A DNA stretch of 37,453 nt, from IMG/VR virus record IMGVR_UViG_2563366824_000006; one strand, written 5' to 3'. This document shows, one piece after another, positions 1,447-35,665 of this stretch (its first letter is position 1; every line of letters begins with the position of its first letter). Position numbers and translations under genes: made by a program. Source of the stretch: a virus. Taxonomy: Duplodnaviria; Heunggongvirae; Uroviricota; Caudoviricetes; Peduoviridae. Under the pieces are notes generated by a model. The model ran no database searches and was not told the DNA's origin. It saw only the letters and a list, made by a program, of their open reading frames with translations.

Positions 1447-1533
1447 GCTGAAAAACATAACCCATAAAATGCTAGCTGTACCAGGAACCACCTCCTTAGC
1501 CTGTGTAATCTCCCTTACACGGGCTTATTTTTT
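1447..1533 (+). ncRNA. cyaR: CyaR (RyeE) Hfq-dependent small RNA; its 3' terminator overlaps the phage att core
   Basis: Sequence gctgaaaaacataacccataaaatgctagctgtaccaggaaccacctccttagcctgtgtaatctcccttacacgggcttatttttt matches my recollection of E. coli CyaR, including the C-rich anti-SD loop (ccuccuu) and the terminator hairpin plus U-tract. Not checked against Rfam. Confidence 0.75.
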
Positions 1534-1534
1534 A
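1507..1534. repeat. Prophage attachment-site core, ogr-proximal copy (28-bp direct repeat)
   Basis: aatctcccttacacgggcttatttttta is repeated exactly at 35638..35665; it corresponds to the P2 att core as I remember it and lies inside the cyaR terminator. Confidence 0.85.
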
Positions 1535-1596
1535 CGCGTAATACAATGAAATAAAAGGATTTATTTCTGGTCACGTCCACACATTGACCACATCGA

Positions 1597-1627
1597 CAAA
1601 AAAAGCCCCTCGACTGAGGGGCTTTCT
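1597..1627 (-). terminator. Intrinsic terminator downstream of ogr
   Basis: Stem agcccctc / gaggggct (1604-1611 / 1616-1623) with 4-nt loop; on the minus strand it is followed by an 8-T run (plus-strand A-run 1597-1604). Confidence 0.6.
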
Positions 1628-1635
1628 GCCTGTAA

Positions 1636-1854
1636 TTACATCCACATAATTTGCTGCCCTGACGGCAACGGGTGCGGCCTTACGGTGTGGACTTCTCCCG
1701 GCTTCACGATGTATCTCTGTACCGACTCATAGGTGATGAACGTGGCGCTGCAATTCACGTTCTGGCACTGGTGATAACGCTCTTTTGTCGTGTCAGTGAT
1801 ATAGCGACTTGTACGCGCATGTGCGGCATGCTGGCATAAAGGACAATGAAACAT
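1636..1854 (-). CDS. ogr: Late-gene transcription activator Ogr (zinc-finger)
   Basis: 72-aa product from the internal Met of ORF 1636..1917 (MFHCPLCQHAAHARTSRYITDTTKERYHQCQNVNCSATF...); near-identical to P2 Ogr from memory; Cys-x2-Cys...Cys-x4-Cys zinc finger. Confidence 0.85.
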   Translation of the reverse strand: MFHCPLCQHAAHARTSRYITDTTKERYHQCQNVNCSATFITYESVQRYIVKPGEVHTVRPHPLPSGQQIMWM

Positions 1855-1935
1855 CGCGAGCACCTCTTCCGGTTTTGTTGATGGTGCCATTTTAGTTATT
1901 TTATCCTTATAAAACAAACAGATAAAATAAAGACA

Positions 1936-3099
1936 TCACTCATCATCTTCTGTTTCATACTCCACATCAGAAAGCCTGACCTCAAGCTCCAAGGACGTCG
2001 TGAAGCCGCTATTATTCAGAAAATGTGTCACCTTAGTGATTGTCCAGTCCTGCTCGTCTATGACGCGCTTAAAGCCAGACACTCTGACCGGTGTTTCCGT
2101 GTAAATATCTGCCCGACCAGTGGCAAGGCTGATGGAGAACTCCGCAACGCCCCGTTGCAGTTTGTCCCACTTCGCCTGAGCGGCGCGCATGGCCTGCGCT
2201 TTCGTGGCATATACCGTAGTCAGGGCAAAAACGTTGTCAGCCTCACCGGCCATGTATTCACCTTCGCGCGCTTCCGGTACTTTTGGCGCTTTCTTCTGCG
2301 TGACCGGTTTCGCTTTCGGGTGCTCCAGTGCGCGCAGGTGTTTCTCTTTCTTTTTGCGTTTCAGTTTTACCTTCTGCTTTTGCGGCTTCGGGTCTTTGGT
2401 GTGTAACCACTTTGCCGTTACGCCGGTGTAGGCTCCACGGTCAGCAATCGCAAAATGATGACGGTCGCCGTCGCTGCGGGTGATGGTAATCTGCGGGATT
2501 TTTTTACCGCTGGCCGTCACCCCCTGCCCCGCTTTGAGAAACAACAATTTTCCCATTTTTACCGACACCTCACCGCCGTTGCGTTCAGCAAGGCGGGTCA
2601 GGAATTTTGCATCAGACTCCTGCGACTGGTCGATGTGCGGGATTTTAATTCCGGCCAGTGACGGAGCGACACTGGCTTCCAGCCTGTTACGGGAGGCTAT
2701 CGCCTCAACAATCGCACCGAGCGTGGTGTCATGCCATGAGCCTTCCCGGCGGGAATTGAGCGTCCCGCGAAAATCTGCACTCCGGGCGCGGATGGTAACC
2801 ACATCCGGCGCGCCCCGGTGTTCAACCTCATCAACGGTAAATTTCCCTTTGCATACCAGGGCAAAACCTTTCCAGCCGATATACACCGTCAGGACAGCGC
2901 CACGAACCGGCAGCCCGACCTGCCCGTCGGCATCGTTCAGTTCAATATCAAGCTGGTCAGCCTCAAAGCCCCGGTTATCCGTCAGGGTCATGCTCATCAG
3001 ACGGTCGCTGATATTGCCGGTAATATCCCTGCTGTCGAGCATCAGCATGTAATCCGGCGTCAGCGTACTGCCTGCATCAAATGTCAGCGCATCCAGCAT
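1936..3099 (-). CDS. D: Tail protein D (late control gene D family)
   Basis: 387-aa ORF; length and sequence consistent with P2 gpD; start overlaps the U stop (TAATG). Confidence 0.88.
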   Translation of the reverse strand: MLDALTFDAGSTLTPDYMLMLDSRDITGNISDRLMSMTLTDNRGFEADQLDIELNDADGQVGLPVRGAVLTVYIGWKGFALVCKGKFTVDEVEHRGAPDVVTIRARSADFRGTLNSRREGSWHDTTLGAIVEAIASRNRLEASVAPSLAGIKIPHIDQSQESDAKFLTRLAERNGGEVSVKMGKLLFLKAGQGVTASGKKIPQITITRSDGDRHHFAIADRGAYTGVTAKWLHTKDPKPQKQKVKLKRKKKEKHLRALEHPKAKPVTQKKAPKVPEAREGEYMAGEADNVFALTTVYATKAQAMRAAQAKWDKLQRGVAEFSISLATGRADIYTETPVRVSGFKRVIDEQDWTITKVTHFLNNSGFTTSLELEVRLSDVEYETEDDE

Positions 3100-3578
3100 T
3101 ATCCCGCCCCCGTCATACCCGTGAATTTAGTCGCCATACTGCCAGCCTTACCGATGAGCGATTCCGCCTGTTTACCGATATCGCCATAAAGCGCGGCCAG
3201 TGATTCATCAACGCGGGTGAGCGACAGCGTAAAATCAATTTTTCGGGGTGTGCCGTCTGCAAAGAAAATACTCCCTGTTTCACTCACCCTGCTGATGACA
3301 TACATGCCGTAAATCATGCCGGTGCCATCCAGCAACGGCCACGCCCGACCTTCCTCTGCCATCAGCCTGAGCGTAGTCATCGTCAGCTTTCCGCCGGTCA
3401 GCTCGGGATAAAGCACACCGGCAAGCGTGATGTTTTCCTCGCCAACACCGAGAAACTGAAAGGCATCCCGTTTACCGATACGGGAATTTGACGGCCAGCG
3501 ATAATCTGATTCACGCTGCATGGTCTGGTGTGGCAGCGTCTGGCGCATAAAAACAAACATACCTAACGCGAGCATCAT
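3099..3578 (-). CDS. U: Tail protein U
   Basis: 159-aa ORF in the P2 position between T and D; size matches P2 gpU. Confidence 0.85.
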   Translation of the reverse strand: MMLALGMFVFMRQTLPHQTMQRESDYRWPSNSRIGKRDAFQFLGVGEENITLAGVLYPELTGGKLTMTTLRLMAEEGRAWPLLDGTGMIYGMYVISRVSETGSIFFADGTPRKIDFTLSLTRVDESLAALYGDIGKQAESLIGKAGSMATKFTGMTGAG

Positions 3579-3592
3579 TTTTCGTCACCTCC

Positions 3593-6040
3593 TTAACCGT
3601 CATGCATCATGCTGGCACGGGCGCGCGCACGTTTATCCCGCTCGTATTTTTCGAGCGCATCCTGTAACTGGCGGTCAAGCTGTGTCTCCGGCGCAGTACC
3701 GCCCGTCAGGCTGATGTGATATTCGTTTTTACTCTGGTCCACATAAGAGCGGCCAGCCGGTGCCGTGACCGGCTGATAAGCCTGATAGCCTGCATAAGAG
3801 CTGGTCGCCGGAATATAACCACCGGTGCCATACGTGGCGGCATTAGTCCTTGCGGCGGTCTGGTCAAGTGTGTCTGACTCTTTGTTGATAACACCGAGTT
3901 TTTCCAGTACCCAGTCAATACCATTGCGCAGTTTGTTGAACGCATTAAGCGGCAGCATCAACGCGTCAGCCAGTGCCTGCCCGAACATGACGCCCGTGTC
4001 ACGGCAACGGTTCAGGGTGTCCTGTGTGGCTTTAACCGGGGCAATCAGGTTTTTAAACCACTGCCACGAGGCCTGTAACTTTTCGCCCAGCCAGTCAAAC
4101 ACCGGCTTAAGTGGTGTGAACAGTTCCCCCACCGGCGCAAATGCCGCTTTCAGCCCTTCCACCACACCGCCAAAGAATGCGCTGACAGGCTCCCAGTATT
4201 TACGGATAAGCAACGCCCCGGCGACAATAGCGGCCACCACAGCCACAACCGGCCAGCTAATCGCCCCGATGGCGGTCATAACAGCACTGCCAACCGTCGT
4301 GAAGATTGCCCCCATTGCGCCTGCTGCCGCGATGATGGCATTAATGCCGGTGATAACCGGCCAGGCTACAAGACCAATTGCACCGATGATGCCAGTAAGC
4401 GCCAGTGCGCCACCGACAATGAGGCCGATGGTTGACGCCAGTGATTTGTTTTTCTGGATCCAGCCGTCGAGTTTTAACACATACTTTGTGGCCGTCTGTG
4501 TGAGCTTACGCAGTGCGCCTTCCTGCTGGTCAAACAGGTCAGTCCCCACCGCCTCATAAGCGGACTGAAACTCCTTAAAGTCACCGCCGAGGTTGTCCTG
4601 CATGATATTTACCAGCTCGGCGGTCTTCCCGTCTGAGGCTTTAAACGCAGCGGTCAGTTTGTCCAGCTTTCCGGTTGAGGCGGCTGTCATCAGCACGGCG
4701 GCGGCTGAGCTGGCCTCCTCCCCGAAAATAGTTTTCATGTATTCAGCCTGCTGGGCAGTACCGAGCCGGTTTTTCTCAAAACTGGCCTGCATTTCTTTCA
4801 GAATGGTAAATACTGGTCGGGTATTCCCCTTGCTGTCTGAGGTTTTCACGCCAAGCTCTTTGAGTGCATCCCATGCTTTTCCCGTCGGTGCCTGCAGGCG
4901 GCTTAACACGGCACGGCTTCCCGTCCCCGCCATTGAACCTGTGATTTTTGCATCATGCAGCGCCCCGACCATTGCGGCGGTTTCTTCAATGCTGACACCG
5001 GCATTTTTTGCCACAGGTGCGGCATAGGTCAGCGCATCGCTCATGCCGTCAAAATCAGCGGCGGTTTTGTTCATCGTCATGGAGAGAACATCCCCGATAT
5101 GAGCGACCTTATCGTTTGAAAGCTGAAAGGCGGATTTCATCCCCATCAGCAGGGCGGCGTTTTCTTCCATCGTGCGGCGGTTCGCCTGTGCCATATTCAG
5201 CGTGACCGGCGTTGCCGCCTGAATGGCATCAACATCCCCACCGGCTTTCGCAATGATAATCTGTGCACCGGCTGCATCATCCGCCGAGGCGGCGGTATTG
5301 TCGCCGAGCTGGCGCGCCTGTTTGCGTAGTGCGGTCATTTCGGCGGAGTCTTTTGCCACTCCGAGCACGGCCTGCAATTCTGAGTTTTTCTGCGCAAACT
5401 CATAACCGGGCATCAGCAGCTTAACTCCGGCCATCGTTCCCGCCGCCGCAATCCCCACACCGGCAGCACCCACTGAGGCCATATTTCCGGCCAGTTCCTT
5501 TCCGGCCTGATAACGCTGTTTTACTGCGTTAAGTTTTGCCTGTTGTGCACTGACACGCGCCAGCGCGTCGCGCTGTCGGTTAAGCTGTGCGGTGGTTTCA
5601 CTGATACGGTTTTTCAGTCCCTGCTCATCATGTGCAAGATTGCGGGTATTAATTCCCACAGCGGCCAGTTCCCGCTGCTGGCGTTTAACGGAATCTGTCA
5701 GGCGGTTATATTTCGCCTGTAAGTCCTCCACCGCACGCTTTGCGGATTCCAGCACTTTCGCCTGAGCACGGGTCGGACGTTCGGTGTTTTTAAACTGTGT
5801 GGCAAGGGCTTCGGCTTCCTGCCGTGCCTTTTCAAGTGCATGACCAGTCACGGCGAGCTGTGCACTGGTCTTGCGGAATCCCTCAATACGGGATGCGTGA
5901 CCGTTCAGCTCGCGCAGTGATTTTTGTGTTTCCCGGATATCCCCCGACAGCGACTTACTCGCTGTGCGGATGGATTTAAACGGGCGGGATGCCTGGTCAA
6001 CAGCCCTGAGCAATACCTGTAATTTTACATTGTTACTCAT
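3593..6040 (-). CDS. T: Tail tape measure protein T
   Basis: 815-aa ORF with coiled-coil N-terminal part and Ala/Gly-rich hydrophobic middle typical of tape-measure proteins; position and length match P2 gpT. Confidence 0.9.
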   Translation of the reverse strand: MSNNVKLQVLLRAVDQASRPFKSIRTASKSLSGDIRETQKSLRELNGHASRIEGFRKTSAQLAVTGHALEKARQEAEALATQFKNTERPTRAQAKVLESAKRAVEDLQAKYNRLTDSVKRQQRELAAVGINTRNLAHDEQGLKNRISETTAQLNRQRDALARVSAQQAKLNAVKQRYQAGKELAGNMASVGAAGVGIAAAGTMAGVKLLMPGYEFAQKNSELQAVLGVAKDSAEMTALRKQARQLGDNTAASADDAAGAQIIIAKAGGDVDAIQAATPVTLNMAQANRRTMEENAALLMGMKSAFQLSNDKVAHIGDVLSMTMNKTAADFDGMSDALTYAAPVAKNAGVSIEETAAMVGALHDAKITGSMAGTGSRAVLSRLQAPTGKAWDALKELGVKTSDSKGNTRPVFTILKEMQASFEKNRLGTAQQAEYMKTIFGEEASSAAAVLMTAASTGKLDKLTAAFKASDGKTAELVNIMQDNLGGDFKEFQSAYEAVGTDLFDQQEGALRKLTQTATKYVLKLDGWIQKNKSLASTIGLIVGGALALTGIIGAIGLVAWPVITGINAIIAAAGAMGAIFTTVGSAVMTAIGAISWPVVAVVAAIVAGALLIRKYWEPVSAFFGGVVEGLKAAFAPVGELFTPLKPVFDWLGEKLQASWQWFKNLIAPVKATQDTLNRCRDTGVMFGQALADALMLPLNAFNKLRNGIDWVLEKLGVINKESDTLDQTAARTNAATYGTGGYIPATSSYAGYQAYQPVTAPAGRSYVDQSKNEYHISLTGGTAPETQLDRQLQDALEKYERDKRARARASMMHDG

Positions 6041-6460
6041 TCGTGTTTCCGCTTCGCCGGAGCGCCTTTTCGCGCCATGTGATGAGTTCGGTCAGGCTCA
6101 TGGGATACAGTTCTGATGGCGGCCAGTGAAATATCACTGCCACATCCGCCATCAGGTCATCGACCGAGAGATTTTTCGGAAACGTTACTGCACCGAGTTC
6201 GGCGACAAAAAACTGACCACCTTACCGGCCAGCGCCACAAGGTCAGGCAGTTCCAGTGCGGCGACTTCCTGCTCGGTCAGCATCGGTGCAGTCATGCGCG
6301 GCAGCACCTTAATCAGTGCATCGACTTCGGAGTTCGCGACCGCAGCCAGACTGACACCGCGCAGCGTCCCGGCATTGGGTTTCATCAGCGTGACCTGTTC
6401 GATGACCTGCTCACCACGCTTGACCGGATTGTCCAGGGTAATCACATTTTCTTTGTTCAT
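6033..6460 (-). CDS. E+E': E+E' tail assembly chaperone made by programmed -1 ribosomal frameshift
   Basis: Slippery heptamer TTTTTTG on the minus strand (6212..6206) in the zero-frame context AGT TTT TTG; I translated the -1 frame by hand and obtained FFVAELGAVTFPKNLSVDDLMADVAVIFHWPPSELYPMSLTELITWREKALRRSGNTNE, ending at a TAA (6035..6033) that overlaps the T start codon. Confidence 0.75.
6185..6460 (-). CDS. E: Tail assembly chaperone E
   Basis: 91-aa ORF immediately upstream of T, as in P2; ends ...KVVSFLSPNSVQ. Confidence 0.85.
   Translation of the reverse strand: MNKENVITLDNPVKRGEQVIEQVTLMKPNAGTLRGVSLAAVANSEVDALIKVLPRMTAPMLTEQEVAALELPDLVALAGKVVSFLSPNSVQ
6206..6212 (-). other. -1 frameshift slippery site (T TTT TTG) for E / E+E'
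   Basis: Read directly in the sequence; equivalent in principle to the lambda G/GT and P2 E/E+E' sites. Confidence 0.75.
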
Positions 6461-6516
6461 GGTTTTCTCACTTCTGAATCAGGGTTAACCGGTCAGCCTG
6501 GCTGACCGGATGAAAA

Positions 6517-7035
6517 TCACAGGCCGATATTGCGGCGGTGTTGCTCCAGCCGGTCGACGCCGTTCACCTTCTCAATCATGTTGATGGTGTCGATTTCGAC
6601 CAGCTCCTTACCGTCCAACGTCAGCCGGAAATAGGTGCAGACCACGGAGATTTTCGACTCAGTGTCTTCTCCCTGTTTCCCCTCGCCGGTGTCGATTTCT
6701 TTCTGACGTCCACGCATGACCACCTCGACGGCCACCGTTTCGCCGGTATCGTCGCGCTGGTAAGAGCCAGCAAAACGAATCGGTACGGCATCCACGCCGG
6801 TTGCGGCGTAGAGCTCCCAGATAACCGAATCCGGGAAGCCCCCGAGCGACCACTCCATTGACAGCGCATCGTCATCAAGGCCGAGGTCTACCGGTGCGCT
6901 GCCGTTCATCCCCGCACCGCGATAGTTTTCGAGCTTACGGGTCAGTTTTGGCAGCGTGACGGACTTTGCAACGCCCTGATAGCTGTAGCCGTTCAGAAAG
7001 ACGTTCATTAACTTGAGTTTGCGCGGCATTGCCAT
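6517..7035 (-). CDS. FII: Tail tube protein FII
   Basis: 172-aa ORF; position and size match P2 FII. Confidence 0.88.
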   Translation of the reverse strand: MAMPRKLKLMNVFLNGYSYQGVAKSVTLPKLTRKLENYRGAGMNGSAPVDLGLDDDALSMEWSLGGFPDSVIWELYAATGVDAVPIRFAGSYQRDDTGETVAVEVVMRGRQKEIDTGEGKQGEDTESKISVVCTYFRLTLDGKELVEIDTINMIEKVNGVDRLEQHRRNIGL

Positions 7036-7047
7036 CGCTCAGGCTCC

Positions 7048-8238
7048 TTAATTGCTGTTAACCGAAGTGACCAGATTTGCCAGGTATTTATCGGTAATAC
7101 GCTGGCGCAGGGTCAGGTTTTCAAGAGGAGGCACCGGTGTATAGTCGTAGTCGATATACAGTTTTCCGGCCTTGAGGGTTTCCGCATCGTTGGATTCTTC
7201 GCTGAACCAGCAGGTCGCATCCACGATATAGCCGTTTGTTTTCAGCTCACGGAATTTGGCATTGATGCCGTCAACGATGTCGCGAATCAGCGTTGCGGTG
7301 ATGGGCTTGTCCACCGCCCACATGTGCGCCTCAGCCATCGTGTCGGCCAGCACCTGCGCGGTGCGGGTGTAGTTTTCAAAGAGGAACAGCGGGTCATCAG
7401 AGCAGGTACGGTTACCCCAGAAGCGGAAACCGTCACGGCGAATCAGCGTTGTGACGCCTGACTCGTTAAGCAGGTCAGCATCGGTGCCGGACTCCTGCAA
7501 ATCCCAGAATACGGACGCGCTGATGCCGGTAACACCGTTCACCCCGACGTTGGACAGCGTTTTATGCCAGCCCTGCTCCTGGTCGATTTTAGCGCGCAGA
7601 CCCAGCGCACGGGCAGTGGCATACGCGGTGGCGGTGGTACTGGCGACCGTATCCCATGCGAGGAAATCCGGCCAGATGACCATCAGCTCACGCTGGCTGA
7701 AATTCTGGCGGTAGGCTTTCACCTCGGAAATGGTTTTACAGCCCCATGCGCTGATATACCCGAAAGCGCGCAGCTTCTGACAGACTGATGCCAGTGCAAC
7801 AGCCACCTCTTTGGTGTCCAGTCCCGGCACACCGAGAATACGCGGTTTAACGCCGGTTACCGACTCTGCCGCCAGCAGGGCTTTCAGTCCGGTGTACTGA
7901 CCATTTTCGTCGGTGGTGCCGATGATATTGGAAACGGTCTGCGCGAGTTTCGTTTCCTCGTCGTCGCCGGTGCCGTCTTCCACACGCACGACAACGGTGA
8001 CCGGTTTTGACTGGTCGGCGATGGCCTGCAACGATGCCGCCAGCGTGCCTTTTTTACCGGCCTTTGCAATTGCGCTCTGCACATTGGTAATCAGCACAGG
8101 TTTATTGAGGGGGAAGGTTTCCGCATCCGCATCGCTGGCCGTACAGACCATGCCGACAACGGCAGTGGATACGGTGGAAATGACGCGGGTGCCGTCGTTA
8201 ATCTCCAGCACCTGCACGCCATGATGATAGTCACTCAT
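7048..8238 (-). CDS. FI: Contractile tail sheath protein FI
   Basis: 396-aa ORF; position and size match P2 FI; GGAG Shine-Dalgarno about 9 nt upstream. Confidence 0.9.
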   Translation of the reverse strand: MSDYHHGVQVLEINDGTRVISTVSTAVVGMVCTASDADAETFPLNKPVLITNVQSAIAKAGKKGTLAASLQAIADQSKPVTVVVRVEDGTGDDEETKLAQTVSNIIGTTDENGQYTGLKALLAAESVTGVKPRILGVPGLDTKEVAVALASVCQKLRAFGYISAWGCKTISEVKAYRQNFSQRELMVIWPDFLAWDTVASTTATAYATARALGLRAKIDQEQGWHKTLSNVGVNGVTGISASVFWDLQESGTDADLLNESGVTTLIRRDGFRFWGNRTCSDDPLFLFENYTRTAQVLADTMAEAHMWAVDKPITATLIRDIVDGINAKFRELKTNGYIVDATCWFSEESNDAETLKAGKLYIDYDYTPVPPLENLTLRQRITDKYLANLVTSVNSN

Positions 8239-8330
8239 CCGTTTAACTCCGTGGTTAATGGGTGCAACTATTTTCTGTTGGGCAGTGCATGAGACGCTAT
8301 TTGACCTGGCTGGTCAGTGGATGAAACAAC
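8239..8330 (-). promoter_or_regulatory. Probable Ogr-dependent late promoter P_F region (upstream of FI)
   Basis: Position only, by analogy with P2 late-operon architecture; I found an imperfect dyad (TGG-N12-ACA around 8311..8328) but no perfect TGT-N12-ACA. Confidence 0.35.
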
Positions 8331-8361
8331 AGATAAAGAAAAGGCGGGCAATTCGCCCGCC
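8331..8361 (-). terminator. Intrinsic terminator downstream of the cargo gene, upstream of FI
   Basis: Stem ggcgggc / gcccgcc (8343-8349 / 8355-8361), followed on the minus strand by TTTTCTTTATCT. Confidence 0.55.
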
Positions 8362-8601
8362 TGTCCTGATTTGTACTCACTCATTTTCCGACTGACAATT
8401 TACATAGCCCAAACGCTATCAATTCTGACAGTCTGCTTTGAGCGAGGAGCAGACCTTCACGCTTTTCGCTGTTGAGTGACATGAATTATTAAAGAGCATT
8501 ATAAAACTTCACTTTTTCTAATTTCAATGCTTTATTAAAGTCAGCGACATTCAGGATTATCAATTCAATATTAATATACCATCAGCATTATATAAGAGGT
8601 A

Positions 8602-9606
8602 TTATGCTAACCATTTTGGATGCTCTTTATAAACATTATTAAACCACTCGGTCATTTCAGGTGAGTTCGTATCCTTTATCCAAGTTAACTCAAAGTCATC
8701 TCCCATAGATGCAAATATTGATTTCAATTGAGTTATGATTAAACCATAGTAAAATCCAAAAGTTTTTTCTTCATCCTCATTGACTAATGATTCAATATGA
8801 CAACTGAGAATAAATCGAACTCGTGCCGCCGTTGAGGGATGTGTCGATTGAAAATGTTCATGGGGTGATAAGCCATCAGAAAGTTTGAAGTAGCACAGTA
8901 TTAATAGCAATGAAAATGCAATTCCGCCTTCCTTGCTGCTATAAAAATCAAGCAAGTTATTAAGATAAGATGCCTTCTGATCAAATGCAGACTGTACATG
9001 TTTTTTTACAATATTAAGAGCAAAACCATCTGCAACTAATTCTCTTGCGTGGCTTGATATTATTTCTGCGCTATTGATTTTTTTATGTCCTAAAACATCA
9101 TCAAAGATAGTGTCAATAGATTGCTTTTTTGCTCGGTCGCCATGTTTATTAATGAAATGGCCTACTTCGTGACTAACTATAAACAGCATTAGACAATCAA
9201 GAATAAACATAAATAAGTGTGATTCGGACTCACTTTCCTCTCTTGTCTCATTGTTAAACCCAACAAATGGATTAGTAACGAGATGCAAGTCATAAAAGTT
9301 TAAATTAGTACTTTTCCCTGTTATCATCCCTGACCGAAAAATCAAGTCAGATAACTTACATAGTCTATCAAATGTGCCATAAGACATAAATATCAATTTT
9401 TCATCATAAATAATGCCGCATTGAAAATGTGAGTTGGTTGTAATGCAAAAATCCAGATCTAATTTTCGAACAGAGTCCATGTATTTACTAAAAAACGGCA
9501 GTACGAGACCATTATCTCTATCATTTATAAAATCATAGATAAGCCCCAATTGATTCTTTGAAAGAATTTCATTGATTTCATTAAGTTTTATTTCAAATCT
9601 ATCCAT
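8602..9606 (-). CDS. Cargo gene at the Z/fun position: putative zinc metallopeptidase with M48 (HtpX/Ste24)-like motifs and an N-terminal domain of about 135 aa of unknown function
   Basis: 334-aa ORF, AT-rich. Motifs read in the translation: HEVGH, then RELVADGFA (the ExxADxfA third-ligand motif of M48 peptidases), then STHPSTAARV (the THPxxxxR motif). AGAGGT Shine-Dalgarno upstream. No membrane helices evident, so probably soluble. Confidence 0.6.
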   Translation of the reverse strand: MDRFEIKLNEINEILSKNQLGLIYDFINDRDNGLVLPFFSKYMDSVRKLDLDFCITTNSHFQCGIIYDEKLIFMSYGTFDRLCKLSDLIFRSGMITGKSTNLNFYDLHLVTNPFVGFNNETREESESESHLFMFILDCLMLFIVSHEVGHFINKHGDRAKKQSIDTIFDDVLGHKKINSAEIISSHARELVADGFALNIVKKHVQSAFDQKASYLNNLLDFYSSKEGGIAFSLLLILCYFKLSDGLSPHEHFQSTHPSTAARVRFILSCHIESLVNEDEEKTFGFYYGLIITQLKSIFASMGDDFELTWIKDTNSPEMTEWFNNVYKEHPKWLA

Positions 9607-9760
9607 AATTAGAACCTCTTAATTAAAATTTTAAATAATCCGCTTAAGTAGCTATGGAGATGTAATTCTAATACTCAATCCACTCATTCAATGGAAAGAT
9701 TAGCATTACTTTAACCGCACTTTTGGACTTGACTTACTTCCCTTAAAGCTTCTGGGCACT

Positions 9761-9802
9761 ATGTTAGTAATGTCCGCTCTTCGCACGCAGCGGACATTGC
9801 TA
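9761..9802. repeat. Hairpin-containing repeat, copy 1 (15-17 bp stem, 10-nt loop)
   Basis: ttagtaatgtccgct (9763..9777) pairs with agcggacattgctaa (9788..9802) with one G-T wobble; the 42-nt segment matches 10859..10900 at 28 of 42 positions by my manual alignment. Confidence 0.6.
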
Positions 9803-11481: not shown

Positions 11482-11484
11482 AAA

Positions 11485-27262: not shown

Positions 27263-29470
27263 ATGAAATTAAAACTCAAAAACGTAACAAGCTATCATAA
27301 AGAATATTTTACTGAGTTAGATTTATCCAAAAAAATAAACATATTGTATGGACAAAATGGTTGTGGAAAATCTACCATATCAAATTATTTTTACAATCCT
27401 AAAGACACCGCCTATAAGGAATGTGTATGCGAACCCATCGATAATTATCGAACCCTAGTCTACAACTCAAAATATATAGAAGATAATTTTTATAATGCAA
27501 AAGAGCAAAAAGGTATATTTACCCTCAGTCAAAAAAATGCAGAAATTGAAAAAATACTATCTGAAAAAGAAGAGCTAAACAAATCACTAGCACATCAGCA
27601 TAAAGAAAAAAAAGAATTTATCGAAAAACTCCATGAAGCGAAAAACAAAAAAGAGCAAGAATGCATAAATTCCATATGGAATAAGACCAAAGACATAAGA
27701 AGTTCAGAATTAAAACAATTAATGAAAGGTCAAATAGGAAGCAAAGCCACTTTCTATTACCATCTAAAAAAGTATACTCCACAAACTGATATTGATATAA
27801 AATCATTAATACAATCTTATAGCAAACTTCTCGAGTTTAAAGGAAAAGAAATACCTCTGATAACTCCTTATAAAGGATATGTTTTATCTGAAGAAACTCA
27901 AAAAACATTATCCACACCAATTATTGACTCTAGCAACAGCTATTTATCTGAAGCAATAAAAGAGCTACAAAATATTGATTGGATTAAACAAGGCAAAGAG
28001 CTATATTTAAATGGAGAAATTTGTCCATTTTGCCAAAGGGACACAATAGATGATAATTTTATTAAAGCCATTGAATCTATCTTTGATGAAACATACTCAA
28101 GAAAAGTAGATCAAATACAACAAATAAAACTATCTTATGATAATGCCATTAAAAATCATCATGAAGAAATAAAGAGTAACATTTTATCATGTGAGGTGAT
28201 AAACCAAGACGAAAAAGATAAAAGCCTTTCATATGTTAAGGCATTAGAAACTATTGCAGAAAAAAACATCAAATTATTGGATAATAAAATAGAGAATCCA
28301 TCTATAAGCATTGTGCTGGAGTTTGAAAAGTCGATAGAGGAAAAACTATTAGAAGATATAGAACAATACAACAAAAAAATTAACGAGTTCAATGACAAAG
28401 TAAAAAGATTTAATAATAGCGAAATAGATATTCGCGAAAAGATGTGGGCAGCAATCAGAGACTTATGTAGCGCGGAATTTGAAATACTATCAGACTGCGA
28501 AAGAAACTTTCAAGAAAAATATGAAAACGCTGCATCCTTCATGCAGGAAATAAAAAGAAAAGAAGAGATCAACACAAATGAAATCAATGAACTAAGAAAT
28601 AAAACATCAAGTGTAGATGCAACAATAGATGCAATAAACTCACGACTTAAATTTCTTGGCATCTCTGGTTTTAGCATTGATAAACACGCCGAACTCAAAG
28701 ATAAGTATATAATATCCCGCGATGGAAACAATAGAAAACAAGATGTATATCGGTCATTAAGCGAAGGTGAAAAAACATTAATAACGTTTCTATATTTTTT
28801 AGAATGTTGCAAGGGTAAAACAAATGAAAATGATACTGATATGCGTGATAAACTCATAGTTATAGATGATCCTATATCAAGTTTATCTCAAAACTATGTT
28901 TTCGACATAGCATCCATGATCCATCATGACATAATTGAAAAAGGCATTTCATCAAAAATAATAATCCTCACCCATAATCTTTATTTCTTCCATGAGTTAA
29001 TAAAACTCGCCTCTAAAAAAGGAATAAATTTTAAACGTGACTACTTTCTTGGCAGAATAAACAAAAATGAATTTAGCACCATTAGTGCTATAGATAAAAA
29101 AAGTGTGCAAAATGAATACCAATCCCTTTGGCAAGTATTAAAAGATGCAAAAGAGAAAAAAATCAACAAAATAATAATCCCCAATATTATGAGAAATATA
29201 CTTGAGTATTACTTTGCATTTGTTCATAGAACTGACGCATTAGAGGCAAAGCTTACTGAATTAACAAATGATGAAAATAACAGCCATTTCCGTGCCTTTT
29301 ACAGATATATAAACAGAGGCTCTCACTCCGACGCAATAAACATAACAGATATGGGCGATATTGAACCTGAGAAATACTTAGAACTCTTGCACAAAATATT
29401 CAGAATGACTGGTGATGAGAAACATTACTTAACAATGATGGGTGAAGAAGAGGTAAATGTTACCGCTTAG
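27263..29470 (+). CDS. Cargo gene at the tin/old position: RloC/PrrC-like ABC-type ATPase with Rad50-like CxxC zinc hook and putative C-terminal HEPN/anticodon-nuclease domain
   Basis: 735-aa ORF, very AT-rich. Walker A GQNGCGKST (27347..27373); long coiled-coil region with CPFC (28022..28033) at its midpoint; signature-like LSEGEK; Walker B LIVIDDP; H-loop ILTHNL; C-terminal R-x3-E (MRNILEYY) and R-x6-H (RYINRGSH) motifs. Confidence 0.55.
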   Translation: MKLKLKNVTSYHKEYFTELDLSKKINILYGQNGCGKSTISNYFYNPKDTAYKECVCEPIDNYRTLVYNSKYIEDNFYNAKEQKGIFTLSQKNAEIEKILSEKEELNKSLAHQHKEKKEFIEKLHEAKNKKEQECINSIWNKTKDIRSSELKQLMKGQIGSKATFYYHLKKYTPQTDIDIKSLIQSYSKLLEFKGKEIPLITPYKGYVLSEETQKTLSTPIIDSSNSYLSEAIKELQNIDWIKQGKELYLNGEICPFCQRDTIDDNFIKAIESIFDETYSRKVDQIQQIKLSYDNAIKNHHEEIKSNILSCEVINQDEKDKSLSYVKALETIAEKNIKLLDNKIENPSISIVLEFEKSIEEKLLEDIEQYNKKINEFNDKVKRFNNSEIDIREKMWAAIRDLCSAEFEILSDCERNFQEKYENAASFMQEIKRKEEINTNEINELRNKTSSVDATIDAINSRLKFLGISGFSIDKHAELKDKYIISRDGNNRKQDVYRSLSEGEKTLITFLYFLECCKGKTNENDTDMRDKLIVIDDPISSLSQNYVFDIASMIHHDIIEKGISSKIIILTHNLYFFHELIKLASKKGINFKRDYFLGRINKNEFSTISAIDKKSVQNEYQSLWQVLKDAKEKKINKIIIPNIMRNILEYYFAFVHRTDALEAKLTELTNDENNSHFRAFYRYINRGSHSDAINITDMGDIEPEKYLELLHKIFRMTGDEKHYLTMMGEEEVNVTA

Positions 29471-29697: not shown

Positions 29698-31986
29698 TTA
29701 CTTAAAAAGATCAAAGCCACTAAAAAACTGCTTCCACTCACCACTTATTGGATATATAAACTTTCGTCCGTCAAACTTTACCGTCGCGCCACGCGCCAGC
29801 GCCTCAAGCTCCCATCGCTGCGGCCTGATACCGTTCTGAGCAAGGTCAACGCGGATACGGTTGATTTGCAATCGTTCCGACCGGGTCAGTCTGGCAGATG
29901 GTGCCATTTCATACTGTTTTAACGGGCTTCCGTTTCTCTGCTGACGATTTGGTGTTCTCAGCCCGTGTTTTAATGCGCCCCTGAGCGCCCTCACGACCTC
30001 CGGGTCATTCCATTCGATAACACCGTCATCAACCAGATTAAGCACTGCTGCGGCGTGCTCAGAAGGCGTGGGAGCCGGTAACGAAGTATTACCGCCGGTG
30101 AGCTTTCCACAGTTATTGACAGGACTCCGAGGCGCGGCGATGCCGCTTTTTAAAGTCAAAGGCTCAACGACCGGAACTTTCGGCACAATGCGCCAGTCCG
30201 TCGTTCTGGTGATATGAATATGGCGCGCGCCGAGATGCGGCGCGTAAATGCCGACCACTCTCTCGACCTCTTCCTCGTACTCGTTAACGTCATCCGACGG
30301 GCTACGGGCGACCCTGACAGTCTGACAATCGCGCGGGACATTTGCCCCACCCTGCGCGCTGATATACAACGCAAAATCACCACTGTCTGCGGCGGCGCGT
30401 GCAGCCTCGACGCGCTCGTCAAACTCATCAGCAATGCTGACGCCGCGCGGCAATTTGCGTAGTTCACGGTAAGCCCCCATTGTCGGCAGACCAACCGTTT
30501 TAAATTGCGGGATGCGCCACGTTGACGCCCATGCAGTAACAGCCGCGGCAGTATCTTTCAGAGGTCTGCCGGTATCGTTATCGAGCTGACCATCCAGTGC
30601 ATAGCCGTCGATGTTTTTTGAGATGTATTTCGCGATATACCCCGCAGCACCGCCCCGATTAAGGTGTTTTGCCTGAAAACGGTTTCGCGCGGCTCCTCTT
30701 TCGTCGCCATCCTCTTTGAGCGCATAGCGACGCATGATTTCGATAATCTGGTTACGCTGGCGCGGATTACAAAAAAGCATCATATGCCAGTGCGGCGTTC
30801 CGTCGTGGTGTGGCTCGACGACACGCAAACCGTAGACCTGTAAATCATTATCCTTGAATGCCGTGCGCATCAGGCTCCAGATACGGCAGAGATAACGCTG
30901 CGCATCCTTTGGATTAAATGCCTCATCGTTCCAGCCGTGATTTAGCTGGACGGTTTTACTTTCGCCTTTTCTGACCTGACGTGTCGGGTGATACTTTGAC
31001 GGCGCGGTCAGCGTGATAAACATCCCTACATCACCCTCTGCTGCGGCGTAACGCTCAATACCGGCAATGGTGTTCATCAGCTCCATCCGGCGAATTTCAG
31101 GATTAGAAATACTGCCCATCACCTTACTGATAAGGTCGATGCGCTCGCCGGTTTCCCTGTTTTCGAGATCACACGATTTAAGAAATTCCAGGTTTGCCTG
31201 GCGGCGTGCACGCACATCACGAATGGCATGTTTACTGGCATAAGGAGAACGGTCTTTATTGACCTCCCCGACAGCAATCAGTAACGCCTCATGCCAGCGC
31301 ATACGCTGGCCTTTAAACTGATGAGTCCACCACTCATCGTTAAACAGACGGGCAATGGCAGAATATGCCTGCCTCGTGGTCATCTGCCCTTTACGGTATT
31401 TTTTCCAGTAGAGAGGGGAAATATTGAAAGCACGTGCAGCGCCAGCAACATGACCATAGAGGTGAGCCTGCGCCTCATCCGTAAACAGCGATTCTTTTTC
31501 GCCATGCGCATCCACCCAGGCATCGCTGAGTTCCTCATACATCATGAAAAGCTGCGATGAGATACGGGCAGCAAACTTTTTCAGCTCCTTGTCATTCATT
31601 CCCGGCAGGCGCGCATAGTGGTCACGCTCTGCCAGAAACAGTAACGACGCGTCGGTGTTCATTTCATGGCGCTGATTCACACGCTCAATGCGCGGCCATA
31701 AACGACGCTGAAAAGTGGATGTGAGGAAATAAAACCCGTGCACCGGGCTTTTATTGCGCCGGATGTAGTCATAGCGTGAAGTAAACAGCGAGCGCAAAAA
31801 GTAAGGCAGGCGGTTAATCGTGGATAAAACACCTTGCACCTGACGCATCTCGTCACGTGTAAGGGGTCTTTCGCGCCCGACAGCCTCGCGTGGCGCGTTC
31901 CATGCATAAGCACCGGTAAACGCCTTACCGGTGCCTGCAGCAAATGCTGACGGAGGGACAAAACGCCCGGAGGCTTTAACGGCCAT
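29698..31986 (-). CDS. A: Rolling-circle replication initiator A
   Basis: 762-aa product from the internal Met (MAVKASGRFVPPSAFAAGTGK...); matches P2 gpA from memory. Confidence 0.88.
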   Translation of the reverse strand: MAVKASGRFVPPSAFAAGTGKAFTGAYAWNAPREAVGRERPLTRDEMRQVQGVLSTINRLPYFLRSLFTSRYDYIRRNKSPVHGFYFLTSTFQRRLWPRIERVNQRHEMNTDASLLFLAERDHYARLPGMNDKELKKFAARISSQLFMMYEELSDAWVDAHGEKESLFTDEAQAHLYGHVAGAARAFNISPLYWKKYRKGQMTTRQAYSAIARLFNDEWWTHQFKGQRMRWHEALLIAVGEVNKDRSPYASKHAIRDVRARRQANLEFLKSCDLENRETGERIDLISKVMGSISNPEIRRMELMNTIAGIERYAAAEGDVGMFITLTAPSKYHPTRQVRKGESKTVQLNHGWNDEAFNPKDAQRYLCRIWSLMRTAFKDNDLQVYGLRVVEPHHDGTPHWHMMLFCNPRQRNQIIEIMRRYALKEDGDERGAARNRFQAKHLNRGGAAGYIAKYISKNIDGYALDGQLDNDTGRPLKDTAAAVTAWASTWRIPQFKTVGLPTMGAYRELRKLPRGVSIADEFDERVEAARAAADSGDFALYISAQGGANVPRDCQTVRVARSPSDDVNEYEEEVERVVGIYAPHLGARHIHITRTTDWRIVPKVPVVEPLTLKSGIAAPRSPVNNCGKLTGGNTSLPAPTPSEHAAAVLNLVDDGVIEWNDPEVVRALRGALKHGLRTPNRQQRNGSPLKQYEMAPSARLTRSERLQINRIRVDLAQNGIRPQRWELEALARGATVKFDGRKFIYPISGEWKQFFSGFDLFK

Positions 31987-32251
31987 ATGAGCCAAAAGCC
32001 TCTGAACAACGCTTGCTGAGTCGCTCAACCTGCGCGTTTAAATCAGCAAAAGACTTTGCGCTTCCGGTCAGAATATCGTGATGCATCAGGCCGGAAACGA
32101 GCTGGTTTAATTTCGGGTAATAACCAACCACCGCCAGCCATTCCTGACCGGCGTTTTTACCGCTTTCCGCTCTCTTTTTCTCGTGGAGAATAAACTGAAA
32201 GCTGTCACTGGTAACGACATAACGTTCGCCAATTTCAATACGAATACTCAT
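31976..32251 (-). CDS. Hypothetical protein (P2 orf83 position)
   Basis: 91-aa ORF in the small-ORF cluster between B and A. Confidence 0.6.
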   Translation of the reverse strand: MSIRIEIGERYVVTSDSFQFILHEKKRAESGKNAGQEWLAVVGYYPKLNQLVSGLMHHDILTGSAKSFADLNAQVERLSKRCSEAFGSYGR

Positions 32252-32472
32252 GCCGTTCTCCGGTAATGTTTGTTTTTTGCTTCAAAGACTGACTGACAGG
32301 AAACACAACGCGTGGCTGACGGATAAGCCGCACGACGGGCAGCAGGTATTGGCGCGTCACACTCTTCGCAAACCAGCGCAGAAGCACCGCAATGTTTTAC
32401 CCTTGCCGCGTTAATCTGACGCTCCAGTAATTCAGCCTGTTGTTCCTGAATAAAATCTACGTTGTCCGGCAT
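32248..32472 (-). CDS. TraR/DksA-family C4 zinc-finger protein (P2 orf82 position)
   Basis: 74-aa ORF with CGASALVCEEC...CVSC (four Cys in two CxxC pairs). Confidence 0.65.
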   Translation of the reverse strand: MPDNVDFIQEQQAELLERQINAARVKHCGASALVCEECDAPIPAARRAAYPSATRCVSCQSVFEAKNKHYRRTA

Positions 32473-32777
32473 TACCAGCTCCTTTTGTCGTTAAGTTTTT
32501 TAAATTCATCAGCGCAATAGCTGGCAATTTCTGTCGTTAATTTTGTGAGTTCATCCACGGAGGAGATTTTCTTGTGAAATACAGCGCGTTTAACAAGTAA
32601 ATTGACCACATCAGACAGGAGATTTAATTCGTTCTGATAAATCGCGATAACAGACTCAGTTATTTCGCGTTTTTCTTTATCAAGACCAAGTTGAATAAGA
32701 GATAAATCGCCATTTTTCATAACGGCGATTTTTAAGGCGTTATTCAGTAATACAACTGAACGAGAACAGGACATCAA
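32472..32777 (-). CDS. Hypothetical protein (P2 orf81 position)
   Basis: 101-aa ORF with coupled start/stop overlaps to its neighbours. Confidence 0.6.
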
Positions 32778-32998
32778 AGCACCTCCCCGCGAGACAATCC
32801 GATATTGTGAAATTTTTCCGACTCCTGACTGAGCAGCTCGACTATCTCCACGCGGGATAACTCCGCCTTTGTGATGTGGCGAATCATGGCGTCAAGATGA
32901 GAAGAAAAGCGCGTCGCTGCGTCGGCCTGTGCTTCGGTTCTGGCCTGTTGCAGCAGTAATGCGTATTTACCGCACTGATTTTCAGAAACTGTATGCAT
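32774..32998 (-). CDS. Hypothetical protein (P2 orf80 position)
   Basis: 74-aa ORF downstream of B. Confidence 0.6.
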
Positions 32999-33061
32999 GA
33001 CTTTCTCCAGGCAAAAAGAAGCCCCGCACGATTAAGTGCGTTAAAAACTCTGGTTAATTAC

Positions 33062-33562
33062 TTAATGCAGATATTGCTCTGGTTTTACCGACGTCAGAAT
33101 TGTCGGTGCATACTCAAACAGGCTGAATAATTCACGTAATGCACGGAATAAAGCATCACGCCAGTAACATGATTCTTCATTAATTCGCCAGTATGGCTGG
33201 TTGAATTCTTTTTCAGTCAATCCGGCATGCATAAATAAAGTACGACGCTGACTGACTGTTAAAAAACTAATATATGCATACTCACTTGCGCCAACCTGAC
33301 GGCGTTTTGAGAATGCCCCACGCAATTCATCAATTGCACAAACCAGCCGTTCACGTTCGACGTCGTTCATTTCTTCAAAACGCATCGTTGCGTGACGCTG
33401 TTTTAACTGCGCATGGAAGCAAACCGTTAGCCGTTCGCGTTCCATCATCTGATTATAATAATCACATGTATCCTGCCAGCGAGGGACGGCAAGATGCTTG
33501 CCAATTATCCGGCGCATAGCTGCTGGCTGTTTTTCAACGAGATTGAGCGTCATCACTGTCAT
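33062..33562 (-). CDS. B: Replication protein B (helicase-loader-like)
   Basis: 166-aa ORF; P2 position and size. Confidence 0.85.
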   Translation of the reverse strand: MTVMTLNLVEKQPAAMRRIIGKHLAVPRWQDTCDYYNQMMERERLTVCFHAQLKQRHATMRFEEMNDVERERLVCAIDELRGAFSKRRQVGASEYAYISFLTVSQRRTLFMHAGLTEKEFNQPYWRINEESCYWRDALFRALRELFSLFEYAPTILTSVKPEQYLH

Positions 33563-33729
33563 TTCCAGACCCTCCGGCTTTTCAGAAAGGTCAGAGCCTT
33601 TTTTAACGGACTCTGTTTTTTGGTGCGGATAATGATTCCCTTACGCCCCTTACCGTGGGTGATGGTGAAGTCAATCGCCCTGGGGCTTTCGTTACGCAGT
33701 AACTGAGCAATACAACGAGGCTCATTCAT
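33559..33729 (-). CDS. Hypothetical small protein (P2 orf78 position)
   Basis: Internal Met of ORF 33559..33753 (MNEPRCIAQLLRNE...) avoids overlap with cox; start uncertain. Confidence 0.5.
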   Translation of the reverse strand: MNEPRCIAQLLRNESPRAIDFTITHGKGRKGIIIRTKKQSPLKKALTFLKSRRVWK

Positions 33730-33739
33730 ACGGTTCTCC

Positions 33740-34015
33740 TTAACGTGGTTCACCGAGACCTAACCACATCAACCAGCCGTCACGAATCTCTTTAGGGCGG
33801 CTTTCATAAGCCAGTTTTAGTCCGTTATTCCATGCCGGAAGGTATACCCAATATTCACCTGCACGACCTGAAGCTGATTGTGGATCGGTCATATCAATTA
33901 CAGGCAGCTTTCCTTTATCGATCATCCGACGAACCGCTCCTGTCGATTTTCCTATTAGTTTTGCGAACTCCTGATAAGGAATCGCATCAGTCATGAGTGT
34001 TACTTGCTTGCTCAT
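33740..34015 (-). CDS. cox: Cox: excisionase and repressor of the lysogenic promoter
   Basis: 91-aa ORF MSKQVTLMTDAIPYQEFAKLIGKSTGAVRRMIDKGKLPVID...; matches P2 Cox from memory. Confidence 0.9.
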   Translation of the reverse strand: MSKQVTLMTDAIPYQEFAKLIGKSTGAVRRMIDKGKLPVIDMTDPQSASGRAGEYWVYLPAWNNGLKLAYESRPKEIRDGWLMWLGLGEPR

Positions 34016-34129
34016 GTCGTCCTCTAGCCCTCATGAATTGCGTTTAATGTCTTATAATGCCTTTTAGTGCCCACATCCAAGCACTAAACAATCTACATCT
34101 AAACTAAATACTATTGAGATCTAAACACC
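34016..34129. promoter_or_regulatory. Immunity switch region: face-to-face Pc / Pe promoters with C-repressor operator repeats
   Basis: Perfect TATAAT at 34053..34058 (plus; candidate Pc -10). Exact 8-bp direct repeats atctaaac at 34097..34104 and 34119..34126, 22 bp apart, flank a candidate Pe -10 on the minus strand; a third ctaaac lies at 34084..34089. Confidence 0.6.
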
Positions 34130-34429
34130 ATGTCAAACACGATAAGCGAGAAGATAGTCTTAATGCGAAAATCAGAGTATTTGAGCAGACAACAACTTGC
34201 TGATTTAACAGGGGTTCCGTATGGCACGCTGAGTTACTATGAAAGTGGTCGTTCAACACCTCCAACAGATGTCATGATGAACATCCTGCAGACCCCACAA
34301 TTCACCAAATACACTTTATGGTTCATGACCAATCAGATCGCTCCTGAGTCCGGGCAAATTGCGCCCGCTCTCGCACACTTTGGGCAAAACGAAACAACGT
34401 CGCCCCACTCCGGTCAAAAGACTGGTTAA
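34130..34429 (+). CDS. C: Immunity repressor C
   Basis: 99-aa ORF MSNTISEKIVLMRKSEYLSRQQLADLTGVPYGTLSYYESG...; matches P2 C from memory; helix-turn-helix. Confidence 0.9.
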   Translation: MSNTISEKIVLMRKSEYLSRQQLADLTGVPYGTLSYYESGRSTPPTDVMMNILQTPQFTKYTLWFMTNQIAPESGQIAPALAHFGQNETTSPHSGQKTG

Positions 34430-34544
34430 CAATTCATCGTGAATATATTCATCACAAGTGCCTACTATTGGTGGCTAAATTTCAGCCACCACGAAAAAAG
34501 CGATTAGTAGTCGCAAAAAAACACACCACTCGGAGGGTTTTCTG

Positions 34545-35558
34545 ATGGCAATCAAAAAACTCGATGATGGTCGATATGAAGTGGACATCCGCCCTACTGG
34601 ACGTAATGGAAAACGCATCCGTAGGAAGTTTGATAAGAAAAGCGAAGCTGTCGCTTTCGAGAAATACACGTTGTACAACCACCACAATAAAGAATGGCTA
34701 TCAAAACCAACAGACAAGCGACGTCTGTCGGAGCTGACACAGATCTGGTGGGATTTAAAGGGTAAACACGAAGAGCATGGGAAATCTAATCTTGGAAAAA
34801 TTGAAATCTTCACAAAAATAACGAATGACCCATGCGCATTTCAAATTACGAAATCGCTTATCAGCCAGTACTGCGCCACCCGAAGAAGTCAGGGTATTAA
34901 ACCTTCGAGTATCAATCGTGATTTAACATGTATTAGCGGCATGTTTACAGCCCTGATTGAAGCGGAGTTATTCTTTGGTGAGCACCCTATCAGAGGGACA
35001 AAAAGGCTTAAGGAGGAAAAACCAGACACAGGCTATCTCACGCAGGAAGAAATTGCCTTACTGCTTGCTGCTCTTGACGGCGACAACAAAAAGATTGCGA
35101 TTCTTTGCCTGAGTACTGGAGCACGTTGGGGAGAAGCAGCTCGTTTGAAAGCAGAAAATATCATCCATAACCGCGTCACGTTTGTTAAAACGAAAACAAA
35201 CAAACCACGCACCGTCCCGATCTCAGAGGCTGTTGCCAAAATGATCGCGGATAACAAACGAGGTTTTTTATTCCCTGATGCTGATTACCCTCGCTTCAGA
35301 CGAACAATGAAAGCAATAAAACCGGATTTGCCAATGGGGCAAGCCACACATGCACTAAGGCACAGCTTTGCCACTCATTTCATGATTAATGGAGGAAGTA
35401 TTATCACGCTACAACGGATACTAGGTCACACGCGGATTGAGCAAACTATGGTTTACGCTCATTTTGCGCCAGAGTACCTTCAGGACGCCATTTCTCTTAA
35501 TCCGCTAAGAGGTGGTACTGAGGCCGAGAGTGTCCACACAGTGTCCACAGTAGAGTAA
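34545..35558 (+). CDS. int: Tyrosine integrase
   Basis: 337-aa ORF with C-terminal R...HxxR...Y catalytic signature (HALRHSF...Y); matches P2 Int in size and position, adjacent to att. Confidence 0.9.
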   Translation: MAIKKLDDGRYEVDIRPTGRNGKRIRRKFDKKSEAVAFEKYTLYNHHNKEWLSKPTDKRRLSELTQIWWDLKGKHEEHGKSNLGKIEIFTKITNDPCAFQITKSLISQYCATRRSQGIKPSSINRDLTCISGMFTALIEAELFFGEHPIRGTKRLKEEKPDTGYLTQEEIALLLAALDGDNKKIAILCLSTGARWGEAARLKAENIIHNRVTFVKTKTNKPRTVPISEAVAKMIADNKRGFLFPDADYPRFRRTMKAIKPDLPMGQATHALRHSFATHFMINGGSIITLQRILGHTRIEQTMVYAHFAPEYLQDAISLNPLRGGTEAESVHTVSTVE

Positions 35559-35637
35559 CGTTTAAGGGCTTTCAGTGGTAATTTATGCCGCTCAAACCCG
35601 CATTGTACCGTTGAAAGCCCCTACTGGTGACACCCTA

Positions 35638-35665
35638 AATCTCCCTTACACGGGCTTATTTTTTA
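35638..35665. repeat. Prophage attachment-site core, int-proximal copy (28-bp direct repeat)
   Basis: Exact copy of 1507..1534; the flanking sequence diverges immediately on both sides. Confidence 0.85.

Follow-up and report, generated by a model that had tools for sequence, protein, structure and literature searches.

The closest described relatives of the locus considered here are phage P2 (AF063097/NC_001895) and the P2-type prophages of Escherichia coli strains W (Wphi2) and B (P2*B). The E. coli W genome paper places the P2-type elements of W (Wphi2), K-12 (ogr-D′), and B (P2*B) at "cyaR RNA" (Archer 2011; PMC3032704 Table 2), and ryeE, the alternative name of cyaR, is described in E. 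coli as "previously known to be targeted by phages," with reference to Wassarman 2001 (Bobay 2013; PMC3603311). P2-type integrases are elsewhere reported to integrate mostly "between genes," in an account where cyaR is unnamed (PMC3448106). A similar arrangement is found for phage 186 at tRNA-Ile, for Fels-2 and SopE-phi at ssrA, and at the Salmonella sdsR/ryeB locus, where the attachment core reaches into the 3′ end of a structured RNA gene, which integration restores (PMC3448106; PMC3333887; PMC3603311). Here, we describe IMG/VR virus record IMGVR_UViG_2563366824_000006 (Caudoviricetes; Peduoviridae), a stretch of 37,453 nucleotides hereafter referred to as the window. The window almost certainly contains an intact 34.1-kb P2-type (Peduovirus) prophage in the canonical primary site of P2, namely the intrinsic terminator of the small RNA (sRNA) gene cyaR, between yegQ and yegR. 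This site corresponds to locI of P2, and in K-12 it is occupied by a remnant. The prophage is an ordinary member of a well-known kind, and both the use of the cyaR site by P2 and the K-12 remnant are already textbook or database knowledge; the small additions made here are a relic phage arm in the "empty" site, the alleles at one position of the core, and P2-type arms following cyaR in other genera.

The cyaR Gene and the Duplicated Core

The gene cyaR encodes a CRP-dependent sRNA. An Rfam scan of the whole window gave a single match, CyaR_RyeE (RF00112), which lies on the + strand at 1445-1530 and spans the full 85-position model (positions 1-85; 100.7 bits, far above the gathering score of 47; E = 3.6e-19). 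The start at 1447 and the length of 87 nt follow the K-12 annotation. The 87-nt RNA folds into three hairpins, of which the terminator is the last, and the hairpins conserved in the family are present, among them those with the CCUCC seed loop and the AAUCUCCCUU terminator loop; the gene also keeps its conserved place downstream of yegQ, which ends at 1362. In the fold and the terminator scan, the terminator hairpin (1498-1525) has an 11-bp stem and a 6-nt loop and is followed by TATTTTTT / UAUUUUUU, with a minimum free energy of -15.9 kcal/mol (z = -6.1). A simple sigma-70 scan of 1300-2000 gave no promoter match. Coordinates of all features are summarized in Table 1.

A repeat search pairs 1507-1541 with 35638-35672, and the exact direct repeat within this pair is 28 bp long, AATCTCCCTTACACGGGCTTATTTTTTA, corresponding to the annotated 27-bp core of the P2 phage attachment site (attP) plus 1 nt. 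The cyaR-side copy (attL, the left junction) begins 2 nt ahead of the terminator loop, so that it takes in the final 2 nt of the 5′ stem half, spans the loop, the entire 3′ stem half, and the U-tract, and ends approximately 1 nt beyond the 3′ end of the RNA. The integrase-side copy (attR, the right junction) is without the 5′ stem half, and neither terminator prediction nor the Rfam scan gives a match at 35638-35665; a second CyaR-like element at attR is thus ruled out by the single Rfam match and the absence of a predicted terminator there. A tRNA search of the window found no tRNA gene, and a tRNA or transfer-messenger RNA (tmRNA) as the integration target is likewise ruled out, none lying within the window. 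Unlike tRNA-type sites, where the T-arm and acceptor stem are involved, the target is the terminator of an Hfq-type sRNA.

The attL and attR cores of the window are identical, and the CyaR sequence is unaltered to its last base because the core supplied by the phage is identical to that of the host. The first base that differs from the empty site sits directly after the core (CGCGTAA in attL versus TGCATAA), and the sequence past the core is CGCGTAATAC in attL versus TGCATAAGCC in the empty site. The ogr gene lies on the opposite strand, 100 nt downstream of cyaR.

Reconstruction of the Empty Site and of attP

The two host flanks were joined in silico (window 1000-1534 joined to 35666-36300) and searched against 5426 complete E. 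coli genomes. The joined flanks are contiguous in 4565 of these, with the core inside cyaR, and the query is interrupted in about 860; in NZ_CP023142 (strain CFSAN061770), where the genes are annotated as yegQ, yegR, and yegS, the match is 100% identical over 1170 nt. The prophage ends, joined in the reverse manner (35200-35665 joined to 1535-2000) and searched against phage genomes, match the int-attP-ogr-D region of P2 (AF063097) in one piece at 98.0% identity. The P2 annotation runs in the order int, Int P′ arm, Cox sites, 27-bp attP core, integration host factor (IHF) site, Int P arm, ogr terminator, ogr, and D. From the P′ arm through the core, the window is identical to P2 (141/141 nt), as is the P-arm Int site (28/28 nt), where the tgTGGaCa arm consensus (PMC3448106) occurs in reverse complement. 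The element shares with P2 its core, P′ arm, Cox region, P arm, cos site, and int-attP-ogr-D order. An alignment of attL, attR, the empty site, the K-12-type locus, and P2 attP bears out the four-way relationship expected of them, and the insert measures 34,131 bp with one core copy counted. As judged from these alignments, the repeat is not a chance one, and a chance repeat or an assembly artifact is ruled out by the empty-site and attP reconstructions. In terms of annotation, the exact limits of the prophage are hereby set, and cyaR is intact in the lysogen.

Int binds arm sites and core with the help of IHF, with Cox added for excision, and strand exchange takes place within the core. From what is established for P2 and lambda Int, the phage tyrosine integrase would have recombined the 27/28-bp attP core with the identical host sequence. 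Integration would yield attL in the order cyaR, core, P arm, and ogr, and attR in the order int, P′ arm, core, and yegR flank. With identical cores, cyaR would keep a complete and unaltered terminator, and the attR core would carry neither an sRNA body nor a terminator; the DNA to the right of the strand-exchange points in attL would be phage DNA. By analogy, the logic would be the same as that of phage integration into the 3′ ends of tRNA and tmRNA genes.

The initial annotation had proposed a prophage at the 3′ end of cyaR with its core in the CyaR terminator and a bare core at the int-proximal end, and these proposals are borne out: the Rfam match, the repeat, and the attP match define a P2-type prophage oriented with ogr next to cyaR and int at the far end. 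Both outcomes that the initial annotation had named as refuting it were checked and did not occur, since the empty site puts the core within cyaR and the covariance-model search succeeded. Its further proposal that a phage-derived 3′ end restores cyaR holds for the intact terminator, whereas the extent of phage DNA within the gene depends on the strand-exchange points. Its description of the integration target as unusual does not hold, as this is the canonical site of P2. A 68-nt junction probe, consisting of the P′ arm, the core, and the yegR-side flank and counted at a coverage of at least 80%, finds the int-arm/core junction in 669/5426 genomes (~12%). The prophages of W (Wphi2) and B (P2*B) occupy the same locus and do not differ in kind from the one in the window, only in strain and cargo.

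Integrity of the Prophage

Window positions 1535-25000 show 96-98% nucleotide identity to many Peduovirus genomes over 86% of their length, and the early region is 98% identical to P2. Open reading frames (ORFs) of the expected size were found for the P2 late and early gene set. The integrase carries both an N-terminal arm-binding domain (Pfam Int_N, E = 1e-24) and a catalytic domain (Phage_integrase, E = 9e-22). P2-type genome similarity and gene order, a duplicated core, a matching unoccupied bacterial attachment site (attB), and a cos site are all found together.

No point argues against the structural reading of an intact prophage in the primary site of P2, although some considerations qualify it. 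The equation of locI with the cyaR terminator draws on secondary citations, the P2 GenBank annotation, and general P2 background; that the prophage would still be functional is deduced from its sequence; and, because both cores are identical, the window does not mark the strand-exchange positions.

The K-12 Remnant, the Relic Arm, and Other Genera

The K-12-type locus has the order cyaR, core, P arm, ogrK, and D′, followed by a truncated core. K-12-type strains keep only ogrK and the D′ fragment, in line with the ogrK/yegZ remnants named in the initial annotation, whereas the window holds a complete prophage. The ogrK-yegZ remnant matches window 700-2142 at 97%, and its attL junction is identical. 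The right-hand core of K-12 keeps 18/28 nt and is joined to the D fragment, and a relic arm follows (positions 1443-1463 of the K-12-type locus). Since K-12, the strain in which CyaR was characterized, has the same phage arm downstream of cyaR, the "lysogen context" is the reference context for CyaR. From this arrangement, K-12 would appear to record at least two successive P2-like insertions at cyaR.

The relic arm is a decayed copy of the ogr-side (P arm) Int site of P2 and sits in the right-hand host flank close to the core, at approximately 35680-35710 within 35666-35715. In local alignment, it scores 38, against 13.0 +/- 2.1 with a maximum of 28 for 5000 shuffles. One of its two arm repeats is intact and the other is decayed, and the aligned part is the annotated P-arm Int site of P2; CTGGTCAC and CATTGACCACATCGA are common to the relic and the P2 arm at a near-equal distance from the core, and the relic has a 16-bp deletion between core and arm site relative to P2. 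It was found 15 nt past the core in every unoccupied E. coli site examined (L001, L003, and L130-132), and in K-12 it lies to the right of the younger ogrK-D′ remnant; it therefore predates the present prophage. In the simplest reading, the relic is an older P2-like integration that was deleted to a stub, and the "empty" attB looks like such an old stub. Larger phage-derived DNA in the yegR-side flank was ruled out, as blastn against phages matched only records that include host flanks, so that only the arm relic of ~30-50 nt is phage-like.

The yegR gene lies between the relic arm and yegS. No YegR homologue was found when the cyaR loci of four other lineages were examined, namely E. albertii, Escherichia sp. 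E1V33, Salmonella diarizonae, and Citrobacter youngae. In Escherichia sp. E1V33, cyaR runs directly into the yegS promoter region, without the relic and yegR. The yegR copy of the GTDB "E. coli ECMA0423" representative is merely 50% identical.

A pattern search retrieved the cyaR loci of ~120 Enterobacterales species, in which the terminator stem co-varies; the terminator loop was fixed in the pattern, and its constancy is thus by construction. In most of these species, the yegS promoter region directly follows cyaR. A P2-type arm (GAAATAAAAGG ... GTCCACACATTGACCACATCGA ... terminator) follows cyaR in 2-3 Citrobacter genomes, one Enterobacter, one Buttiauxella, S. diarizonae, E. albertii (in truncated form), and others. 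In the loci of this kind outside E. coli, each core matches the terminator stem of its own host, and three loci (L093, L106, and L118) have ogr and gpD homologues right beside cyaR. Thus, P2-type phages use cyaR as an attachment site far outside E. coli as well.

Alleles at Core Position 15

Core position 15 (window 1521 and 35652) pairs with U1502 in the terminator stem. Most E. coli have G at this position, as does P2, which gives a U.G wobble. The M70-type flank haplotype mostly has A, which gives a perfect U-A pair: ~530 of its genomes have one mismatch to the G-allele query, counted as A alleles because the position is most probably 15, and 25 of ~557 have G. The short B′ type was ruled out as a mark of A-allele hosts, since many genomes combine that 20-nt flank with G, and a longer haplotype-specific flank was used in its place.

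Five lysogens have flanks that are 100% identical to the M70-type haplotype. Three of them (L125, L127, and L128) combine G in attL, i.e., in cyaR, with A in attR; L129, whose P2-like prophage is a different one, shows the opposite arrangement (attL A, attR G); and in the fifth (L126) both junctions have A. If the parental alleles are as presumed, the CyaR stem base in the three attL-G lysogens would be that of the phage, and, as these natural variants suggest, core position 15 can take the allele of either parent. The predicted hairpin energy is -16.6 kcal/mol with A versus -15.9 kcal/mol with G. Directly next to position 15 is a 6-nt spacer, TTACAC, flanked by inverted CCC and GGG. In tyrosine-recombinase chemistry, a mismatch in the heteroduplex overlap leads to reciprocal outcomes. 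Both reciprocal arrangements fit an overlap that includes position 15, with few events and presumed parental alleles, and the alleles at this position offer a natural read-out of the place of strand exchange by P2 Int.

The 3′ stem half of E. coli, ACACGGGC, equals the P2 core, whereas in E. albertii and E1V33 an identical 5′ half is combined with ACGCAGGC. These stems are compatible with a phage origin of the E. coli 3′ half, and equally with adaptation of the phage to its host.

Alternative Explanations

The relic arm and the position-15 alleles raise the question of whether P2 traffic has rewritten the CyaR terminator itself, such that the 3′ stem half, the U-tract, and ~50 bp downstream are a fixed relic of an earlier P2-like integration and lysogeny can swap position 15 as a base within or next to the strand-exchange overlap. 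We regard this as possible, although it is a tentative explanation. The decayed P-arm Int site in the unoccupied site outscores every shuffle, most other genera have the yegS promoter right after cyaR, the 3′ stem half of E. coli agrees with the P2 core and departs from that of the two relatives with the same 5′ half, and mixed attL/attR alleles occur among lysogens of a haplotype that mostly has A, at a position abutting the TTACAC spacer. However, the three attL-G/attR-A genomes are perhaps one clone (ST131-like) and would then represent a single event; both alleles occur within the haplotype, so that the pre-integration alleles are presumed and the argument for a crossover at this position is weakened; the phage cores are perhaps polymorphic as well; the match between stem and P2 core would also arise if the phage had adapted to its host; the two alleles differ little in predicted energy; and P2 Int cleavage sites were not found in the literature searched. 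The broader proposal that P2-like phages keep rewriting the cyaR terminator, with the "empty" attB being an old attL and integration and excision driving conversion toward phage sequence, is somewhat less likely still. If true, the relic arm and the position-15 swaps would amount to a concrete example, open to testing, of phage influence on the 3′ end of a host regulatory RNA.

An effect of the new downstream context, consisting of the P arm and the ogr terminator, on CyaR termination or readthrough appears improbable. Intrinsic readthrough of the CyaR terminator is reported to reach ~41% in K-12 (PMC9765468), a leaky terminator, the sequence differs from the first base after the core, and readthrough would run antisense into ogr; by contrast, the hairpin and the whole U-tract are unchanged, and K-12 already carries the same phage arm at this place. 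The suggestion of the initial annotation that a phage-supplied 3′ end might alter CyaR therefore finds mostly contrary evidence here, with an unchanged RNA sequence and a downstream context that is that of K-12, although with a leaky terminator the context could matter. That the element is a cryptic, non-functional remnant is very unlikely. P2 prophages are non-inducible and decay at the cyaR site, as exemplified by the ogrK-D′ remnant; the present element nevertheless has its full length of 34.1 kb, all P2 late and early genes open at the expected size, an exact cos site, and intact att sites, annotated Int, Cox, and IHF sites, int, cox, and C. An intact prophage in the cyaR terminator thus remains the preferred reading.

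Gene Content and Cargo

The remaining features of the window are listed together with those of the attachment site in Table 1.

Table 1. Features of the window, in order of position
Feature	Position	Strand	Basis
yegQ (trhP) 3′ part, left host flank	1..1362	+	ORF; annotation in matching E. coli genomes
cyaR (ryeE) sRNA gene	1447..1533	+	Rfam RF00112; fold
CyaR intrinsic terminator, hairpin 1498-1525 and U-tract 1526-1533	1498..1533	+	Terminator scan; fold
attL core, cyaR-side repeat copy	1507..1534	.	Exact repeat; P2 attP core
IHF site, P2 P arm	1532..1565	.	Placed by position from AF063097; similar, not identical to P2
Int arm-type binding site, P arm, ogr side	1569..1596	.	28/28 with P2 "Int P arm"
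Rho-independent terminator of ogr and F operon	1601..1625	-	Matches P2 annotated terminator
ogr, late-gene activator, 72 aa	1636..1854	-	Pfam Ogr_Delta (zinc finger) E = 2e-21; P2/K-12 annotation
P2 late region: tail D-U-T-E-FII-FI, tail fiber/baseplate G-H-I-J-W-V, S-R, lysis, head X-L-M-N-O (-); terminase/portal P-Q (+)	1936..26788	- except P-Q +	96-98% Peduovirus identity; ORF sizes; order as in related prophages
Cargo island between tail-sheath and tail-fiber-assembly genes	8602..10774	-	Pfam, PADLOC
AbiGi partner, 334 aa	8602-9606	-	Weak Peptidase_M48 match, E = 1e-4
AbiGi-like gene	9923-10774	-	Pfam AbiGi E = 7e-31; PADLOC AbiGi E = 1e-41
cos site, 19-nt cohesive end	26958..26976	-	Exact match to P2 cosL/cosR GGCGAGGCGGGGAAAGCAC
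735-aa AAA_13 ATPase, PADLOC candidate PDC-S06	27263..29470	+	Pfam AAA_13 E = 5e-104; PDC-S06 E = 1e-254
Early region: A (replication nickase), small ORFs, B, cox (-); C repressor 34130-34429 (+)	29698..34429	- except C +	98% P2 identity
int, tyrosine integrase, 337 aa	34545..35558	+	Pfam; P2 annotation
Int arm-type sites, P′ arm, int side, overlapping int 3′ end	35524..35550	.	Identical to P2 annotated site
Cox (excision directionality factor) binding region	35548..35621	.	Identical to P2 annotated site
attR core, bare int-side repeat copy	35638..35665	.	Exact repeat; no terminator, no Rfam match
Decayed P2 P-arm Int site copy, host flank B′	35680..35710	.	Repeat family; alignment
yegR, right host flank	35822..36139	-	Annotated in 100%-identical empty site
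yegS, right host flank	36554..37453	+	ORF; empty-site annotation

Two classical P2 accessory positions are filled by other cargo. Where P2 has Z/fun, the window has the AbiGi-like gene and its 334-aa partner; the partner had no match in the PADLOC scan, and hence no AbiGii match, and the island lies within the 14% of the query that is unmatched in other Peduovirus genomes. The two genes may constitute a variant two-gene abortive-infection pair. Where P2 has old/tin, a stretch of P2 that is unmatched here, the window has the AAA_13/PDC-S06 ATPase, which is PrrC-like in its C-terminal half. An "AAA family ATPase" of the same size is found at the same place in the MSB1_4E prophage (L129).

The tail-fiber ORF at the H position (11485-14244, - strand) encodes 919 aa and lies near a stretch that aligns less well with other Peduovirus genomes. 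P2 H is shorter, and the comparison suggests an exchanged receptor-binding part. Furthermore, a 261-aa ORF (16751-17536, + strand) lies on the opposite strand within the baseplate/tail block; it had no Pfam or PADLOC match, and a hypothetical gene of the same size occupies its place in ST131-type prophages (L125-L128).

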